Shown here: piece by piece, positions 17,966 to 43,694 of the stretch | How the letters are laid out: each line of letters starts with the position of its first letter | Position numbering within the stretch: position 1 is the first letter of the stretch | Position numbers and translations under genes: made by a program | Notes under the pieces: model-generated | Seen by the model: the letters and a program-made list of their open reading frames with translations, nothing else | Told to the model about the DNA's origin: nothing | Database searches by the model: none | Source: a virus | Lineage: Duplodnaviria > Heunggongvirae > Uroviricota > Caudoviricetes | Strand: one strand, 5' to 3' | Length of the DNA stretch: 53,254 bases | IMG/VR virus record: IMGVR_UViG_2563366998_000011 | Coordinates: 1-53,254 of that record

Positions 17966-18144
17966 AAAACGAAGTTAAAGATCTGCAAATAGATATTCAG
18001 CGCGATGAGCATGATTTAGCTACAGTCCGACAAATCCGGGCTTTTCATATGCGCGAATTGCTTGCATTGAAAGAGCTTGAGAAAAAGTTAGTCCAGTCTA
18101 TTTCTGATCGTAAACAACTTATTGCTCGTTACGGGGGGAAATAA
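17962..18144 (+). CDS. Hypothetical protein
   Basis: 60 aa ORF coupled to flanking genes. Confidence 0.35.
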   Translation: MKNEVKDLQIDIQRDEHDLATVRQIRAFHMRELLALKELEKKLVQSISDRKQLIARYGGK

Positions 18145-18866
18145 TGAATTTAGAATCCATTCTGAAATTCCACTTTCCCAAATCACCGCGATTATCAGAC
18201 GAAAGCCGGGGCACATCCCCGGATGCGCTTAATACGACTGATGCGCTAACCGCTGCAGGTATGGCGCAATCGCGCGTAGAGCTTGGTTACAGCGCTTTTT
18301 TAGGGAAGATGGAACTATCGCAAGCCGAAAAACACAGGGCCGTAGTTTTGCTTACAGAGCGTTTAAGAGCTATGGCAAAAGATTACGAATACGTCATGGA
18401 GCTGGACGAGGACAAACGCAATGATCTTATTATTCTTGTTGCCGTTTTCGCGTTTCGGGATTACTGCCAGAGTGCCGCGACAGAAAAAACTTGTATGGAT
18501 TGCGGCGGATATAAATTTACGTTTGACGACTACGGAGAAAAACACCTTTGCAAAAAATGCAAGGGGCATGGAAAAGTTCGCAATCATTGTAAACGATGCA
18601 AAGGGCGCGGCGAGATACCGGATAAAGCAGCCAGTGAAGCAGCGGAAATGCCAGTGTTCAAAACGTGCCAGCATTGCGGCGGGCGCGGGTACTCGCGTTT
18701 CCCTGTAGATCTTGTCCGGCGTGCGGTTAATCAGCTTGTATTTCCGGTAAGCCGATCAACATGGTGGAAAAAATACCGGGTTTTCTATGAAGACGCCATC
18801 GCTGAATTGTTCAAGGAAGAGGCGCGGGCTGATAACGAAATTAAACGAGTTACGCGGGGTGAATGA
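18144..18866 (+). CDS. Q-like late antiterminator candidate with four CxxCxGxG zinc-finger repeats
   Basis: 240 aa; directly downstream of rusA (Q position in nin region); CMDCGGYK, CKKCKGHG, CKRCKGRG, CQHCGGRG repeats; assignment by position and zinc-finger content only. Confidence 0.45.
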   Translation: MNLESILKFHFPKSPRLSDESRGTSPDALNTTDALTAAGMAQSRVELGYSAFLGKMELSQAEKHRAVVLLTERLRAMAKDYEYVMELDEDKRNDLIILVAVFAFRDYCQSAATEKTCMDCGGYKFTFDDYGEKHLCKKCKGHGKVRNHCKRCKGRGEIPDKAASEAAEMPVFKTCQHCGGRGYSRFPVDLVRRAVNQLVFPVSRSTWWKKYRVFYEDAIAELFKEEARADNEIKRVTRGE

Positions 18867-36475: not shown

Positions 36476-37183
36476 GTGAATACTATGATCCATGTTCGTA
36501 CAGGACAATTTGCTGCCGTGGTGAACGGTAAGCGCTATGAGTTTAATCCTTGCTTTGCTGCGATGGCTAAAATCGGCAACGATAGTGAGCTTGTCGAATA
36601 TTTCGCACTTATCCACGGCGGCAAATATCCATCACGATTGCCAGCAGATCCAGACCTACGCAATCGCATTCTGGCGCGGTGTTATGGTGAAATAGTTCAG
36701 ACATCAATGCACATCCTGAAATGTTGCTCAGACGACGAAATAGGCCCGTTATTGGGCGAATGCTGGTTTACTCCTTCGGGTAAGTTAAAGTTAAAGCCCG
36801 GATTAATGCCGATCGAGGATATCATCACGCTTGCGCAGCACTGCATGTACCACGGTCTTATTGGTGATGGCCCGGAAGAAGAGTCCGGGGAAATTCCGGA
36901 AGGGGAATATAAGCCGACTTTTAACGTCCTTGAATTCGTCTATTCTGCCGTTGCTCACCTGGGCTTGTCAGAATCGGAAGCATGGAATATGACAATGACC
37001 GGATATAGGGCCGCTGTACGCGCTAAAACGCCGCCAGACGAAAGAAACGAGAAAAGCAAGCCAAACATTCACATAAATAAACGTGCTTATGACGAGCAAA
37101 TGGAGGCCGCTAAAAAGGCACTAGAAAGAATGAAAAATCGTGAGCAAGAAAAGCCCGGTAGATCCGGGCGTTTTGCTAATTGA
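36476..37183 (+). CDS. Tail assembly chaperone (putative)
   Basis: 235 aa; position upstream of tape measure. Confidence 0.45.
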   Translation: MNTMIHVRTGQFAAVVNGKRYEFNPCFAAMAKIGNDSELVEYFALIHGGKYPSRLPADPDLRNRILARCYGEIVQTSMHILKCCSDDEIGPLLGECWFTPSGKLKLKPGLMPIEDIITLAQHCMYHGLIGDGPEEESGEIPEGEYKPTFNVLEFVYSAVAHLGLSESEAWNMTMTGYRAAVRAKTPPDERNEKSKPNIHINKRAYDEQMEAAKKALERMKNREQEKPGRSGRFAN

Positions 37184-37550
37184 AATCTTTAATTGCTGTA
37201 CCTGGTGAACTGTGTGTGATTGTATTGTATACAGACTTTGCCTTACTGCGATCTTTCCATTCTTTTAGGATGCAGTTATCAAACTTTGCGATAACCCTTG
37301 AAGGGGATAATTCTTCAACATCCATGTAAGTAAATCCTATCGTGCTGGTTACTGAATACCATACGTGATAACTATAATTACCGTCATGCTCGATTCTTTG
37401 TGGTTCCCCCATTATTTTATTCACTTGCTCACAAGTCATTCCAACTTGCAAATTTTTATCAGCTAACTTAACGAAATCAGTTGATCTTGCGCACCCTGTA
37501 AGAGCTAAAGCCATAACACCAATGAGAACCGCTTTGATTATTTTTTTCAT
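37176..37550 (-). CDS. Lipoprotein (antisense moron in tail cluster)
   Basis: 124 aa; signal peptide and lipobox LTGC; opposite strand to tail genes. Confidence 0.7.
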   Translation of the reverse strand: MKKIIKAVLIGVMALALTGCARSTDFVKLADKNLQVGMTCEQVNKIMGEPQRIEHDGNYSYHVWYSVTSTIGFTYMDVEELSPSRVIAKFDNCILKEWKDRSKAKSVYNTITHSSPGTAIKDFN

Positions 37551-37560
37551 GATTTACCCC

Positions 37561-38220
37561 TTAATTCCAGTTGCAAGCGTTTTTCACTTTGTCGATGTGG
37601 TTATAAAGACCATCAATGTTAAACACTGCTTTCTCAATGTCGCCAGCTTCCGGCACTACTTCAATGATGAATTGTTTTTCGTTAACCAGTTTTTTAATCA
37701 TTGGGATGGCTTTTTTGCCGTCCCATAATCCAAGAGCTTTATAATTAGTTGACCGCCACCACTCAGTAGCTACAGCTTTGTGAACGCCGATCCGGTAGTT
37801 AATATAAGTAGTGTCCCCGGCGTCAGTTACATGGTGTGACCATGCTACGAACATTTTTGTTTTATTACCCTGGCAAGCGATTGTTAATACCGGTTTATTC
37901 TTATCCTGTGCCTTCAGTGTCGGGAAAGCATCAAGACTTCCGCTGAATTGTTCTGCTTTCACAAAAAGGAATACGTTTTTTGCGTCCTGCATATCATCTT
38001 TTCTTTCAACTACAAGCCACTGTTTACCAGCATTTTCTTTTTCTAACTGTGCATCGTATGCGGCTTGTTTTGCTTGTTGTTCTGCAAGCCATTTAGCATT
38101 TTTCTCTGCTAATGCTTGTTGCTCTTGATTGGTCACTATAGGCGCTTTTTCATTATCCTCATTGCAACCAACCAGACCCAATACCGCCGCAATCATTGCC
38201 ACTTTTGCTAACCGTTTCAT
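37561..38220 (-). CDS. Lipoprotein (antisense moron in tail cluster)
   Basis: 219 aa; signal peptide and lipobox LVGC. Confidence 0.7.
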   Translation of the reverse strand: MKRLAKVAMIAAVLGLVGCNEDNEKAPIVTNQEQQALAEKNAKWLAEQQAKQAAYDAQLEKENAGKQWLVVERKDDMQDAKNVFLFVKAEQFSGSLDAFPTLKAQDKNKPVLTIACQGNKTKMFVAWSHHVTDAGDTTYINYRIGVHKAVATEWWRSTNYKALGLWDGKKAIPMIKKLVNEKQFIIEVVPEAGDIEKAVFNIDGLYNHIDKVKNACNWN

Positions 38221-38347: not shown

Positions 38348-40690
38348 ATGGCTACCAGTGTAGGTACAATTTATTACGAAGTTGATGCGAAAACTGGTCA
38401 ACTTCTCGTTGCACAACGACAGGCAGACCAGGCCTTTGATCGTATAGAGCGCGGCGCAAAACAGGCTGACCGCCAGGTAAACACCCTGAAAACATCCATC
38501 AAGGCACTGACCAGGGTTATCCATCTGCTAATTGCTGCGGAGGCTGTGCGCCAATTTATGGATATGGCGGAGCAAGCAAAAATGCTTCGCGTAAAAATCA
38601 AAATGCTTACGGGCGATGCGGAGTCCGCCGGACGGGTTTTCGACGGCCTGAAAGCAATATCCAGGGAGACGGGGCAGAGCCTGAAAGATACTGGCGAATT
38701 ATGGCAAGGCCTGGCTATCTCACTAAAAAACACCTCCGCTACGGAAGGGCAATTGCTTAACCTGGTTGGCACTATTCAGAAAATGGGTGCATTAGGCGGC
38801 GCGTCAGCGGAACAGATGTCTAACTCAATGCGTCAATTCCGTCAGTCTATCGACGGCGGTGTTCTTCGTGCCGAAGAATTTAACAGCCTGCTTGAAAATA
38901 CGCCGACCATCGTACAAACAATGGCCCGCCATATGGGATTATCAATGGGCCAGTTCCGCGCCGAAATGCTGGACGGCAAGATCACGGCTGAAAGGATGGT
39001 TAACGCAATACAGGCGGCTACGCAGGAAACAAACGATAAGTTTGCTCAGTTGCCGCGCACATCCGGCATGGCTATCAATGAGCTTAAAGTAGAAATTATG
39101 GGCCTTGTTGAGCAGTTGGATGATCTTTTTGGCGTGTCAGATGGCGTTGTTTCAGCTATCGACTTGATCACGAAAGGCGTTAAAGGGCTTGGCGATGGCG
39201 CTAAATTCGCTAAAACCTGCTTCGACACACTCAAAACGGCTGGTAGCGAATTTATCGACATGTTTGATGATGTGGCTGTTAAGGCTGGAGAGGTGGCAGA
39301 GAAGATCATCGCAATGGTGACGCCAATCAAGGCGCTAATGGATGGCTATAAATGGATGAAGGAGGTAGTAGGAGAGCAAACCGACGAATATAACAGCAAC
39401 TACGAGAAGAAATACGGGAAGACCGTTGGCAAGGTCATGCAACTACAGGATGATCTGACCGCAGCAATCCAGGCTACAGAAGAAGCAAGGAAAAATGAAC
39501 AGAATGCTGCCAATGACGGAGCGATTACCGGATTCGACAAGCCAGTAGACAAGCCGAAAAAACAGAAAAAAGAGAAGAAATCGGAAGCTGATCGGCTTGG
39601 TGACAAAGGTATAAGCGTTTCTGATCAGTACAACAAAGACGCCGCCGCCATGCGCAAAGCGTTGGAGAACGGCAAGGCCATTGATGCTGCATTTGCCCAG
39701 GGTAAAATCACGCTCCTTGAGTACCGCGCCGCGCAAAAAGGGATCGGCAAGGAACTGAAAGAAGAATTAGCACAAATTCCGGTAGATGAATTGCGTGATA
39801 AATGGTCACAAATAGTAAGCCCGATGGATCAGCTAAAAGGCGAAGTTGACCCCATCCAGCAGGCGCAAAATGAATGGGCCATCCGTAAGCAAATGCTTAT
39901 AGACCTGGGCGCTACTGAAGCGCAACAGAAACAGGAATTGTTAGCCTATGAGCAACAGATCCGCGATCTGAAATGGGAACAATGGCAGGCGCAAAGCGAC
40001 ACAAACGGCCTTATCGGTGATTGTGTTAATGGCCTTAAAGGCGGAATGAGTAATGCGCTTGTTGGCCTGTTAAACGGCACTCAATCATTGAGTGATGTTT
40101 TTGCTAACTTAGGAAGCAATATACTCGGCAATATCGGTAACAGACTCTCAGACATAGCTGCAAACTGGATAGCAGATCAGATCATGATGGAGACACAAAG
40201 CAAGGCCACGCAAACAAGTACAACAGCAAGCGCGGTAGCAGCTCAGGGAAGCATTGCTGCGGCGGCGGCCCCAGCAGCGGCGGCAACTGCGGCGTCAACT
40301 GGCGGTAGCTGGGCGGCGGCTGGTTCGGCGGCGCTCACTGCGATCATGTCGCTGGCTACGTCAATTTTCGGCGGCGGTCGCTTTAATGGTGGTAGCGTCA
40401 TTGGTGGTAATATGTACCGCGTAGGGGAACACAACAGGCCGGAGCTATTCCAGACATCTAACGGCAATCAATATATGATCCCTGGCGAGAACGGCAGAGT
40501 TATTCCGGGCCGTGATATTGGCGGCGGTGGCGGTATTAGTATGCCTGTCAGTATCAGCATTCAGACCACGAACGGATTCAGCGACGAAGACAGCCGCAGA
40601 CTTGAATTAACAATGGAACGTGTAGCCATGAAAATGATAACAAGGGAATCTCAAAGACCAGGCGGAATGTTGCAACCTCGCCGCAAATAA
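38348..40690 (+). CDS. H: Tail tape measure protein (lambda H-like)
   Basis: 780 aa; alpha-helical with Gly/Ala-rich C-terminal region; precedes M-L-K-I-J. Confidence 0.85.
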   Translation: MATSVGTIYYEVDAKTGQLLVAQRQADQAFDRIERGAKQADRQVNTLKTSIKALTRVIHLLIAAEAVRQFMDMAEQAKMLRVKIKMLTGDAESAGRVFDGLKAISRETGQSLKDTGELWQGLAISLKNTSATEGQLLNLVGTIQKMGALGGASAEQMSNSMRQFRQSIDGGVLRAEEFNSLLENTPTIVQTMARHMGLSMGQFRAEMLDGKITAERMVNAIQAATQETNDKFAQLPRTSGMAINELKVEIMGLVEQLDDLFGVSDGVVSAIDLITKGVKGLGDGAKFAKTCFDTLKTAGSEFIDMFDDVAVKAGEVAEKIIAMVTPIKALMDGYKWMKEVVGEQTDEYNSNYEKKYGKTVGKVMQLQDDLTAAIQATEEARKNEQNAANDGAITGFDKPVDKPKKQKKEKKSEADRLGDKGISVSDQYNKDAAAMRKALENGKAIDAAFAQGKITLLEYRAAQKGIGKELKEELAQIPVDELRDKWSQIVSPMDQLKGEVDPIQQAQNEWAIRKQMLIDLGATEAQQKQELLAYEQQIRDLKWEQWQAQSDTNGLIGDCVNGLKGGMSNALVGLLNGTQSLSDVFANLGSNILGNIGNRLSDIAANWIADQIMMETQSKATQTSTTASAVAAQGSIAAAAAPAAAATAASTGGSWAAAGSAALTAIMSLATSIFGGGRFNGGSVIGGNMYRVGEHNRPELFQTSNGNQYMIPGENGRVIPGRDIGGGGGISMPVSISIQTTNGFSDEDSRRLELTMERVAMKMITRESQRPGGMLQPRRK

Positions 40691-41400
40691 ACTAAACCCC
40701 GGTGCAATGCCGGGGTTATTTTTGTGCACAGAAAACCCCCAGCTAGGCTGGGGGTTCCGGAAAGCTTTCAGCTTTAAGCCAGTTATTAAAACCCCTTTTG
40801 ATTTGTTAAAACACCTTGCGGTCTGGCAACTGCAAGTGTCAAACAAGAAATCAAAAGGGGGTCCCAATGGGGAACGAAAAGAGCTTAGCGCACACCCGAT
40901 GGAACTGTAAATATCACATAGTTTTTGCGCCAAAATACCGAAGACAGGTGTTCTACAGAGAGAAGCGTAGAGCAATAGGCAGTATTTTGAGAAAGCTGTG
41001 TGAGTGGAAAAGTGTACGGATTCTGGAAGCTGAATGCTGTGCAGATCATATCCATATGCTTGTGGAGATCCCGCCCAAAATGAGCGTATCCGGGTTTATG
41101 GGATATCTGAAAGGGAAAAGCAGTCTGATGCTTTACGAGCAGTTTGGTGATTTGAAATTCAAATACAGGAACAGGGAGTTCTGGTGCAGAGGGTACTACG
41201 TCGATACAGTGGGTAAGAACACGGCGAAGATACAGGATTACATAAAGCACCAGCTTGAAGAGGATAAAATGGGAGAGCAGTTATCGATTCCCTATCCGGG
41301 CAGCCCGTTTACGGGCCGTAAGTAACGAAGTTGGATGCAAATGTCAGATCGTGTGCGCCTGTTAGGGCGCGGCTGGTAAGAGAGCCTTATAGGCGCATTT
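40691..41400 (+). mobile_element. IS200 insertion sequence (boundaries approximate)
   Basis: contains IS200-type tnpA; left-end hairpins at 40697-40715 and 40733-40756; about 0.7 kb; inserted between tape measure and gene M. Confidence 0.65.
40867..41325 (+). CDS. tnpA: IS200/IS605-family transposase TnpA
   Basis: ORF 40816..41325, likely start MGNEKSLAHTRWNCKYHIVF; HxH motif (HIHMLVEIPP) and catalytic Tyr region (GYYVDTVG); matches Salmonella IS200 TnpA as recalled. Confidence 0.9.
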   Translation: MGNEKSLAHTRWNCKYHIVFAPKYRRQVFYREKRRAIGSILRKLCEWKSVRILEAECCADHIHMLVEIPPKMSVSGFMGYLKGKSSLMLYEQFGDLKFKYRNREFWCRGYYVDTVGKNTAKIQDYIKHQLEEDKMGEQLSIPYPGSPFTGRK

Positions 41401-41425
41401 GAAAAACCTCCGGCTATGCCGGAGG
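41399..41425 (-). terminator. Minus-strand intrinsic terminator
   Basis: hairpin CCTCCGGCATAGCCGGAGG followed by TTTTTC on minus strand. Confidence 0.5.
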
Positions 41426-41488
41426 ATATTTATTTCGTATTTATAAACGACCATTCCGCGCGATATATCCCCTTTCGAATATCTCGAC

Positions 41489-41743
41489 TCACTTATGAGT
41501 GCCTTTCACGCCACATAACTTGTTATAGGCATGGTGCTCAACAATTAACCAAACCTTCAAATCTTCGCTAAACAGCCTCCAATCAAGATTGATATCCATT
41601 TTGTATCCGTAACCGTCGCGTAACTTTTTGGGGTAAACTTCTTTTCTCAGAAAGGCTTTAAGTAATTCCTTACCTTTCTTGATGATCCGGTCCTGTGCGT
41701 TTTTCTGTGCTTTCAGATTTCTGTCAATCGCTACCAGTTTCAT
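41489..41743 (-). CDS. Hypothetical protein, possible RelE/YafQ-like toxin
   Basis: 84 aa; basic; C-terminal ...VKGTHK loosely resembles the YafQ/RelE C-terminus; second gene of a two-gene antisense operon. Confidence 0.3.
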   Translation of the reverse strand: MKLVAIDRNLKAQKNAQDRIIKKGKELLKAFLRKEVYPKKLRDGYGYKMDINLDWRLFSEDLKVWLIVEHHAYNKLCGVKGTHK

Positions 41744-41760
41744 AACTCACCCCATCATCC

Positions 41761-41916
41761 TTAGTTAAGTGCCTTCAGGAAGAAGTCCCGGTATTCATCT
41801 TCTTTCGCATTCATCATGAATTGACCGTATTTGAATGCGTCGTCGAAACCCTTAACGATTGCTATTTCCACTTGTTCGAATGCGTTATTTAGCATTACTA
41901 CTACATAGCGTTTCAT
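41761..41916 (-). CDS. Small hypothetical protein (51 aa), possible antitoxin partner
   Basis: MKRYVVVMLNNAFEQ...; strong GAAGGAGG RBS; 18 nt upstream of the 84-aa gene. Confidence 0.35.
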   Translation of the reverse strand: MKRYVVVMLNNAFEQVEIAIVKGFDDAFKYGQFMMNAKEDEYRDFFLKALN

Positions 41917-42083
41917 TTTGGGCCTCCTTCGTTGGTACTACTTTCTTCTTGCTTTCTATATACATCTTGTTGCGTGCTATGTGAAGCCATTTTGTAAACT
42001 AGCTATAATCATTGTGACAATGATCTTATTTTTCGCGTAGAAGCGCGTAAAGATATATACAAAATGTAACTTGTGGGGGGTTT

Positions 42084-42437
42084 ATGCCGGAAGTGTTCAG
42101 ATGGACGCCGCAAAGAAGCTACAGCGTGACCAGGAAGCCAGACGTATCTGTTGTTAAGCTGGGCGATGGTTATGAGCAAAGACAGGTAAAAGGTATCAAT
42201 CCATTGCTTGATAGCTACACCCTGGTGTTTAAAGGCAGTAGCGCCGGATGTGGTGATGGTGGAAACGTAGCAATCCAGGCGGAAGCATTCTTGAGGGCGC
42301 GCGGCGCGGTCGAGGCTTTTTACTGGTCGCCGTCAATGGATAACGTGCAAAGGCTTTTTGTCTGTCGGCAATGGAGCATGACTAAAGACGGGCCTTTGTA
42401 CACGCTAAACGCAACGTTTGAGCAAGTTGTTGGCTAA
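42084..42437 (+). CDS. M: Minor tail protein M
   Basis: 117 aa; FRW...KLGDGYEQR...EAFL...WSP...FEQVVG matches lambda gpM. Confidence 0.85.
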   Translation: MPEVFRWTPQRSYSVTRKPDVSVVKLGDGYEQRQVKGINPLLDSYTLVFKGSSAGCGDGGNVAIQAEAFLRARGAVEAFYWSPSMDNVQRLFVCRQWSMTKDGPLYTLNATFEQVVG

Positions 42438-42638: not shown

Positions 42639-42668
42639 GACCCCGCGCGAAGCGGGGTTATTTTTATT
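42639..42668 (+). terminator. Intrinsic terminator within tail cluster
   Basis: hairpin CCCCGC-GCGAA-GCGGGG followed by TTATTTTTATT. Confidence 0.55.
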
Positions 42669-42790
42669 CTATTTCCATTAATGCTATATTTTCTGCTATC
42701 GTTTTCCAGTCCAGATCTACAGCATGAACGCCAAATACTATCAACCACATTATTATTAGCGCCAAAACTTCTATTTTTATAATCAGTCAC

Positions 42791-43039
42791 CTATAAGTTA
42801 TCACGCAGATAATTAACGCCCTTATCAGTGACGAATGAATGGTTAACCTGGTTTTCATCCGTCATGATGATGAATAACTTTTCATGTAGGTATTTCGCTT
42901 TCGGGTACAGCGTTAAACAGACCTGGTACAGTATCCCGCGCTCAATCAGCAAATCAATAAATTCGTGTTCATGATAACCGATGAGGCGGGCGGCCTGTTT
43001 CAACGTGTACACATAATCACCGTGATTGCGCCGCCCCAT
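42791..43039 (-). CDS. Hypothetical protein (possible HTH), antisense moron
   Basis: 82 aa ORF on opposite strand between M and L. Confidence 0.4.
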   Translation of the reverse strand: MGRRNHGDYVYTLKQAARLIGYHEHEFIDLLIERGILYQVCLTLYPKAKYLHEKLFIIMTDENQVNHSFVTDKGVNYLRDNL

Positions 43040-43048
43040 GTTGCCGCC

Positions 43049-43396
43049 TTATTTATCGAATGCTGAAAGGTTATCGATACAGAAATCTTTCGCCGCTTTT
43101 TCGTATTCGCGTTTTGCTTCTGGATCGTCAGCCGGGAAACCTTTTGCGTGTATTTCACCAGGGCAAGACTGGTCCATAGAATCTGCATAATAAGCAGTGA
43201 AGCTACCATTAATATCTTTCGGGTTCATATCTTCCACCTCATCAACTATATGTACCGGATTAGCAGCATATTTCACTGGATGGCCTAAACTACATTCAAG
43301 AATCCTGCCTTCTTCCAGGGCTACTTCTTCGCTATCAAATAATCCGAAACACTCCTTGCTACCACTTAACCACACATCAAGACTGTATTTTTTCAT
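43049..43396 (-). CDS. Hypothetical protein, antisense moron
   Basis: ORF 43049..43498; likely start MKKYSLDV at 43396 with GAGG RBS. Confidence 0.4.
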   Translation of the reverse strand: MKKYSLDVWLSGSKECFGLFDSEEVALEEGRILECSLGHPVKYAANPVHIVDEVEDMNPKDINGSFTAYYADSMDQSCPGEIHAKGFPADDPEAKREYEKAAKDFCIDNLSAFDK

Positions 43397-43565
43397 TTTT
43401 GTTAGCCTCATATTTGACAGGTTCGATCTGGTATCCCAAAAGGCGGTCATCCTCAGCAAGTAAAAGCGCGTCAACCAATGCTTCACCCTCGTCGTCATAC
43501 AGGGCGATAACCTTTTCCCTACCGTCTGTCATGAATACCGTCAACTTCCATAGCTTTTCAGTCAT
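43377..43565 (-). CDS. Hypothetical protein (62 aa), antisense moron
   Basis: ORF 43377..43685; likely start MTEKLWK at 43565 with GGAGGTG RBS. Confidence 0.4.
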   Translation of the reverse strand: MTEKLWKLTVFMTDGREKVIALYDDEGEALVDALLLAEDDRLLGYQIEPVKYEANKNEKIQS

Positions 43566-43694
43566 AACGCACCTCCGCGCCATTTTGTTAACTATGCTTC
43601 CGTTTGAGTAAAATATACATATTGTAAAAACCGCGATCAATCCATTTTGGTATGATTTAGCGTGACGCAGATCACAGAATGACAAGGTGAGAAA

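Follow-up and report, generated by a model that had tools for sequence, protein, structure and literature searches.

The 53,254-nucleotide (nt) stretch of DNA analysed in this study (IMG/VR record IMGVR_UViG_2563366998_000011, hereafter the window) contains an mEpimmI-type (mEp021/mEp554-like) Escherichia coli prophage in which the insertion sequence (IS) IS200C occupies positions 40723-41434 on the plus strand. Taken as a whole, we consider it likely that IS200C landed recently in the terminator behind the tape measure protein gene, that the surrounding tail operon probably still works, and that an antisense cassette of two small genes next to the IS, one of whose products would have a RelE-type fold, is a putative toxin-antitoxin (TA) module. 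The initial annotation of this locus had placed the IS at the junction of the tape measure gene and the minor tail gene M; it actually lies at the boundary between the tape measure gene and the cassette. Nothing in this arrangement is categorically new, as it combines a known IS, a moron-like cassette, and an uncharacterised RelE/ParE member that is already catalogued by Pfam and RefSeq. The presence of IS200C should not be taken to mean that the prophage is defective or that its genes are regulated in a special way.

The prophage belongs to a group of coliphages with a reported high prevalence in the human gut. The closest phages to the prophage are mEp554, mEp021, mEp010, mEp044, mEp013, mEp515 and MagusPhagus; human faeces were the source of the mEp phages, with E. 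coli K-12 as the isolation host (PMC11893012).

Identity and boundaries of IS200C

Alignment to an empty site and comparison with other IS200 copies, in line with the alignment to a reference proposed in the initial annotation, fixed the ends of the 712-bp element at 40723 and 41434 and identified a T-tract as its target. The IS200 transposase gene (tnpA) described in that annotation was confirmed, as were terminal hairpins at 40734-40756 and 41407-41425, but a hairpin at 40695-40717 proved to be phage DNA. This phage hairpin and its T-tract intervene between the tape measure stop codon and the IS, which does not begin directly after the stop codon at 40691 as had been supposed. The ends are ambiguous by 1-3 nt, with T residues at both junctions, and the first base is T40723. 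In seven independent IS200 copies the right end is the same (...GGAGGATATTTATT) while the next base varies, and IS200C therefore stops at 41434. Terminal inverted repeats are absent (the ends TGTGCAC... and ...TATTTATT do not invert), and the right end (TTATT) is similar to the target.

The tnpA gene (40867-41325, plus strand) is intact and encodes a Y1 HUH transposase of 152 amino acids (aa) that matches Pfam Y1_Tnp (PF01797, 3.8e-38) and NCBIfam transpos_IS200 (NF033573, 1.9e-43) and is identical at 152/152 positions to the RefSeq IS200C transposase of E. coli (WP_000526135.1). The protein contains H61-I-H63 and Y125, the residue that Ellis et al. 2015 (PMC4513863) mutated to obtain a catalytically dead control. 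Folding of the element produced three structures whose positions agree with published IS200 coordinates (PMC4513863). The left-end hairpin at 40734-40756 (plus strand) corresponds to nt 12-34 of IS200 (nt 1 at 40723); in Salmonella IS200 this hairpin is reported to terminate transcription bidirectionally and Rho-independently, and so to keep out transcripts that impinge on the element (PMC4513863). A stem-loop in the tnpA 5' untranslated region at 40792-40860 (plus strand; nt 69/70-138 of IS200; -55.4 kcal/mol, z = -3.95) sequesters the Shine-Dalgarno sequence AAGGGGGU. The right-end hairpin at 41407-41425 (-15.6 kcal/mol) is terminator-like on the plus strand and is followed by TTTTTC on the minus strand. 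The Rfam model of the IS200 left-end RNA, STnc490, scored 146 bits at 40734-40857 and was the sole Rfam match in the window.

The element is a plain IS200 member of the IS200/IS605 family and displays every testable defining feature. It shares with IS200C of E. coli an identical transposase, the left-end hairpin, the Shine-Dalgarno-sequestering stem-loop and the right-end hairpin, together with the lack of inverted repeats, the lack of a target duplication, and insertion 3' of a T-rich target; its length of 712 bp compares with 707-710 bp published for IS200. The element itself does not differ from IS200; only its location, in the terminator of a prophage tape measure gene, is distinctive.

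Insertion into a terminator T-tract

IS200C sits at the 3' end of the T-tract (40719-40723) of the phage's own bidirectional intrinsic terminator, whose GC-rich hairpin at 40695-40717 is terminator-like on both strands (-17.2 kcal/mol, z = -3.0) and is unchanged in 10 IS-free loci. The empty site in E. coli M1/5 aligns as ...CCGGGGTTATTTTT followed directly by CGTATTTATAAACG..., with the insertion point between the two, and nine more loci encoding the identical 84-aa cassette protein have the same empty site. When the empty site (TTATTTTT followed by CGTA) was compared with the occupied site, no target-site duplication was found at the IS200C junctions. Integration here would have placed the element in a terminator dividing two convergent units, the tape measure gene and the antisense cassette.

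This choice of site is typical of IS200. One genome per species was scanned for the exact 35-nt IS200 left end and the 50 nt upstream were read, giving, together with earlier E. coli loci, 51 distinct flanks from a scan of Kluyvera, Citrobacter, Phytobacter, Brenneria, Entomohabitans, Yersinia, Enterobacter and Kosakonia. All 51 left flanks, from at least nine Enterobacterales genera, end in TT after a T-rich run; positions -1 and -2 are T in 51/51 and positions -4 to -6 in 45-50/51, yielding the consensus TTTT[T/A/C]TT, mostly with a GC-rich terminator hairpin just before it. Read by eye, such a hairpin directly precedes the T-run in nearly all 51 flanks. A strict test called for a perfect stem (5 bp or more, including three or more GC pairs), a loop of 3-8 nt and, abutting the IS, a tail of 4-12 nt with a T content of 70% or higher; it was passed by 38 of the 51 flanks compared with 5 of 5000 random positions from the same loci. 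The failures were mostly scoring artefacts, for example where A/T pairs lengthened the stem into the T-run or the stem held a single mismatch. In agreement with this, a recent survey found a strong excess of terminator-like sequences directly upstream of ISs, most marked in IS200/IS605 (PMC13548323). The position of IS200C is thus explained by ordinary IS200 target choice, that is, by terminator T-tracts, and is unrelated to the tail genes.

A probably recent insertion and its occurrence in other genomes

A megablast search of positions 40600-42100 against 5,426 complete E. coli genomes returned no record covering at least 80% of the query, while about ten prophages matched both flanks with the IS missing. 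The cassette is present in 31 of these genomes, and none of the 31 has the IS at this site. Junction patterns in IMG/VR identified one occupied and nine empty contigs. The flanks of the insertion are the same as in IS-free prophages, with E. coli M1/5 being 100% identical over 41489-41916. The same occupied site was found in GCA_003074495.1, which is identical over all 712 nt of the IS, and a contig look-up reported five further similar places. The copy in the window is also 710/712 identical to the IS200C copy that another E. coli strain has between dsbA and yihF.

IS200 is often described as nearly or essentially immobile. Judged from these sequence comparisons, the insertion appears to be a recent, lineage-restricted transposition, and the exact empty and occupied sites would record recent movement of IS200 in E. 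coli. The presence/absence polymorphism with identical flanks supports the transposition competence of the element only indirectly.

The antisense cassette and its 84-aa product

Two minus-strand genes to the right of the IS make up the cassette: the promoter-proximal gene (41761-41916) encodes a 51-aa acidic protein (isoelectric point (pI) 5.1), and the second (41489-41743), 17 nt downstream on the same strand, encodes an 84-aa basic protein (pI 9.9). Both were noted in the initial annotation as having ribosome binding sites, and the Shine-Dalgarno-like sequences GAAGGAGG and GGGGTGAG are present. Differences in the 51-aa gene at codon positions 1/2/3 number 3/2/18 relative to mEp554 and 3/2/20 relative to mEp515. 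Substitutions in both the 84-aa and the 51-aa open reading frames (ORFs) are biased towards the third position; the two are real genes and are under purifying selection.

The cassette is a conserved moron. The initial annotation took the tape measure (H) and M genes to be normally adjacent; however, in all IS-free relatives examined, an antisense island and a bidirectional terminator intervene, and the order is always tape measure gene, predicted terminator, then island. The island starts, at its promoter-proximal end, with homologs of the 51-aa and 84-aa genes, to which 0 to 5 extra genes are added before the terminator, for a total of 2 genes in the window lineage, 5 in mEp554, 4 in MagusPhagus and 7 (including an HNH endonuclease) in mEp515. 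The cassette lies between H and M in the viable phages mEp021, mEp554, mEp515 and MagusPhagus, and an antisense cassette with a strong terminator 3' of the tape measure gene is ancestral in this phage group. Like the morons of HK97 and lambda, the cassette is an antisense unit between tail genes with its own promoter-like element and terminator, and its content varies among related phages. In lambda the junction of the tape measure gene and M is uninterrupted, whereas in the mEpimmI group the cassette sits exactly there, and the group further differs in having three antisense islands within the tail operon.

The 84-aa protein matches Pfam PF24732 (ParE_like) at 9e-12 from position 2 to position 67 of the 67-position profile, scoring 45.3 bits where the gathering threshold is 24.4; it also matches PHROG 1525 (function unknown) and is named "ParE family toxin-like protein" in RefSeq. 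Its subfamily is very narrow, with 10 proteins at E <= 1e-3 in a profile search of 1.84 billion representatives. In a diverse alignment of homologs, K40, L41, R56 and H70 are invariant, K23 and N74 are nearly so, and Y/F73-N74 is conserved as part of a C-terminal H-x-x-Y/F-N. An AlphaFold model built from this alignment (pLDDT 86.9, pTM 0.74) has the element order strand, strand, helix, three strands, C-terminal helix. Foldseek ranked YoeB and YafQ first among its matches (probability up to 0.97, TM about 0.45-0.49, E = 0.07); these scores are modest, and the match list is homogeneous, with YoeB, YafQ, RelE and HigB on top. A first AlphaFold run, based on 17 close homologs at least 69% identical, was discarded (pLDDT 63.8, meaningless Foldseek matches). 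Sequence and profile searches of PDB returned nothing relevant, and hhalign of the 84-aa family against an approximate E. coli YoeB sequence aligned 16 columns at a probability of 1%; these comparisons revealed no sequence-level relationship to a solved toxin. There was also no match in NCBIfam or PADLOC, and a literature search on PF24732 found nothing. The modelled structure, which has the alpha/beta arrangement of the RelE/ParE toxin superfamily with a helical N-terminal element against an antiparallel sheet, and the Pfam match support membership of that superfamily at the level of the fold, in keeping with the RelE/YafQ-like resemblance that had been noticed in the initial annotation.

A toxin-antitoxin module or a phage effector?

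Several features of the cassette are those of a type II TA module: the small gene comes first, the genes are co-oriented with a 17-nt spacer, the products have complementary charges, and the two genes stay paired in every close relative. We propose that the 84-aa protein would act as a toxin and be neutralised, in type II style, by the co-transcribed 51-aa protein encoded upstream, with both expressed from the lysogen. The odds that the pair is a TA module seem only slightly better than even. The TA-like operon of the initial annotation has the gene order and spacer of a type II module, and the product of its first gene matches no antitoxin family. The 51-aa protein matched only PHROG 29810 (phrog_29810, 9.4e-40), which is of unknown function, and had no match in Pfam, NCBIfam, PADLOC or PDB; its other homologs are all close (at least 76% identical), and an antitoxin role is suggested by its position and charge.

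There are several observations that weigh against a TA module. The searches named above placed the 51-aa protein in no recognised antitoxin or DNA-binding family, and no 51-aa homolog was found where one was looked for beside distant PF24732 members. The 51-aa protein also evolves more slowly than the putative toxin. In MagusPhagus it is 100% identical to that of the window (3 synonymous changes), while the 84-aa gene differs at 48 of its 84 codons, 28 of them non-synonymously. A conserved 51-aa protein alongside a divergent 84-aa protein is atypical for a tightly co-evolving TA pair, and the MagusPhagus comparison (locus L076, 1293-1720, against 41489-41916) implies either a recombination breakpoint between the genes or very different rates.

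These observations also feed a somewhat doubtful alternative, in which the 84-aa protein is an effector of the phage with a RelE fold and the 51-aa gene is an independent moron gene co-transcribed by chance. The effector could be an RNase for host shutoff or superinfection exclusion, or could bind RNA or the ribosome without catalysis. Distant PF24732 members occur in arrays of small same-strand phage genes that encode neither a 51-aa homolog nor a recognisable antitoxin; the missing antitoxin and DNA-binding signatures, the lack of a PADLOC match, and the pairing of one identical 51-aa protein with 84-aa variants differing at about a third of residues all fit this explanation as well. However, the small-gene-first order, the 17-nt spacer and strict co-occurrence in close relatives form the classic type II signature, to which the complementary charges and the toxin-superfamily fold also belong, and a lysogen that expresses a free RelE-type RNase should require something to inhibit it.

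The distant PF24732 proteins (L013, L073/L074, L075, L016 and L072) have identities of 26-52% and are encoded in runs of small co-oriented genes. Their loci lie on phage-like contigs, one of 101 kb. Among the neighbouring genes, some fall into PHROG families of unknown function, and one PF24732 gene lies close to a gene resembling T7 gp0.4. Two of these lineages have a conserved upstream neighbour of 116-118 aa (57% identical between them, phrog_8127), which may be an alternative partner of PF24732 proteins.

As for the activity of a TA toxin of this kind, the 84-aa protein may be a ribosome-dependent mRNA endonuclease. This type is favoured over gyrase poisoning because RNase-type members stood above ParE in both structure searches and because an Arg, a His and the H-x-x-Y/F-N element are conserved. 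The Pfam and NCBI names of the protein point instead to a true ParE-type gyrase poison, an assignment that we regard as quite improbable in view of that ranking. A broader proposal, which must be called unlikely, is that PF24732 is a phage-specific branch of RelE/YoeB-type interferases with a non-canonical N-terminal beta-hairpin. In the temperate mEpimmI phages the 51-aa protein would be an antitoxin of a new, unclassified type that restrains the enzyme. Encoded at the head of a variable moron island and active in the lysogen, the two would provide abortive infection or exclusion. Solitary homologs in the early regions of lytic-type phages would then be unneutralised host-shutoff RNases.

Compared to YefM-YoeB, DinJ-YafQ, RelBE and HigBA, the cassette likewise encodes a small basic protein (here a putative toxin only) of the same fold class, has a small acidic gene first in a two-gene operon, and conserves an Arg, a His and an aromatic residue near the C-terminus of the putative toxin. 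It differs from them in having no significant sequence similarity, in a predicted N-terminal beta-hairpin followed by one helix where RelE/ParE toxins usually have two helices, in a 51-aa partner that matches no Phd/YefM, ribbon-helix-helix, helix-turn-helix or other antitoxin family, and in a pairing that is not kept in distant members of the 84-aa family. The PaaR2-PaaA2-ParE2 system, found in E. coli O157:H7 prophages, likewise includes a toxin of the RelE/ParE superfamily. The 84-aa/51-aa pair is a small and clean candidate for a TA pair, and if validated it would represent a new type of antitoxin together with a phage-borne, YoeB/YafQ-like branch of the RelE/ParE superfamily.

Transcription across the insertion

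IS200C interrupts no ORF, and every tail ORF of the prophage is intact, including the tape measure gene (38348-40690, plus strand; 780 aa, as in IS-free relatives; Pfam TMP_3, 1.1e-49) and M (42084-42437, plus strand; Pfam Phage_min_tail, 1.2e-27). The disruption of an essential tail function that the initial annotation had considered was therefore not found at either IS boundary. That annotation had also asked whether an internal promoter is needed for genes M-L-K-I-J; that concern applies to the whole phage group and not to the IS. Since a terminator and the cassette lie between the tape measure gene and M in plaque-forming, IS-free relatives, expression of M-L-K-I-J must already cope with terminators and with convergent transcription.

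In the rightward direction, the native hairpin and its five-T run are kept, the latter because IS200C begins with T, and two IS hairpins and 0.7 kb are added. In the leftward direction, the first terminator-like site after the cassette is now the right-end hairpin of the IS with TTTTTC, about 65 nt after the 84-aa stop codon. In IS-free relatives the cassette terminator is the bidirectional hairpin shared with the tape measure gene; the terminator that the initial annotation regarded as the cassette's own does exist as a terminator-like site, but it is IS200 sequence. For the cassette, the IS hairpin would replace the displaced native terminator and leave the 3' untranslated region about the same length.

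Expression of M-L-K-I-J would rely on terminator-resistant late transcription, on a conserved promoter-like element before M, or on both. In lambda, Q makes late transcription resistant to terminators. The prophage has a Q-type late antiterminator gene (18144-18866, plus strand; Pfam PF03589 Antiterm, 1.6e-29). A candidate promoter for M, recognised as a sequence match, lies at 41981-42009 on the plus strand (weak -35 GTGAAG, 17-nt spacing, perfect TATAAT); its TATAAT (42004-42009) lies 74 nt upstream of M and does not vary among the window, mEp554, MagusPhagus and mEp515, and the cassette/M intergenic region is 90% conserved among these four phages. A candidate cassette promoter (TTCACA, 17 nt, TATATA) at 41957-41985 on the minus strand is back-to-back with it; both were read by eye, and a stringent promoter scan found no site in 41917-42083. 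It is plausible that the Q gene and the conserved -10 box answer the read-through concern.

IS200C would appear to add no new kind of obstacle to late transcription, and the prophage is probably still tail-proficient. Two points tell against this: action of Q on the late operon is a prediction from the family assignment of the gene, and the left-end hairpin is a demonstrated terminator in Salmonella IS200, so that some added polarity on M-J is possible. In its strong form, in which hairpins and 0.7 kb of structured RNA halt late transcription before M-L-K-I-J and leave a tail-defective prophage, polarity could draw on that report of termination of impinging transcription (PMC4513863), on the terminator-like right-end hairpin of the plus strand, and on the minority status of the IS-bearing form (0/31 complete genomes and 1/10 IMG/VR contigs), but it is very unlikely, given that viable phages have at the same place a terminator at least as strong (-17.2 kcal/mol, 5-T tail) and hold more predicted terminators in the late region, that a Q antiterminator gene and a conserved -10 element before M are present, and that the tail ORFs are all intact.

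The tnpA gene is co-oriented with the late operon, and prophage induction could drive sense transcription into it; the Shine-Dalgarno-sequestering stem is still included in such transcripts. Just downstream of the TATAAT, the window lineage, including M1/5, has a perfect 17-bp palindrome (ATCATTGTGACAATGAT, 42008-42024), which is degenerate in mEp554, mEp515 and MagusPhagus and was rejected as an operator because it is not conserved in these relatives. The sole difference between the window and GCA_003074495.1 (L003) over 6.2 kb is one G in a poly-G run before M. This run (about 42075-42081) is the Shine-Dalgarno region of M (GTGGGGGGTTTATG), and its length could be slippage-prone, touching translation of M.

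Other antisense islands in the tail operon

In addition to the cassette, antisense islands occur inside the tail operon of the prophage at 37176-38220 and 42791-43685. The latter belongs to an island spanning 42639-43685 between M plus a 65-aa ORF and L, whose content differs among relatives. On its M side is a bidirectional terminator-like hairpin (42639-42659), and it encodes an 82-aa KilAC/antirepressor-domain protein (42791-43039), a protein of about 115 aa within ORF 43049-43498 (phrog_38567, covering residues 35-149), and a protein of about 62 aa within ORF 43377-43685 (phrog_29559). The island at 37176-38220 (minus strand) lies between the tape measure gene and a 235-aa ORF (36476-37183; phrog_791, function unknown) that follows the major tail protein gene. 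One of its products, of 124 aa, weakly matches DUF7738; another, of 219 aa, contains a VasI/TagO-like domain (PF11319, 1.2e-15), so that a domain associated with type VI secretion occurs within a prophage tail operon.

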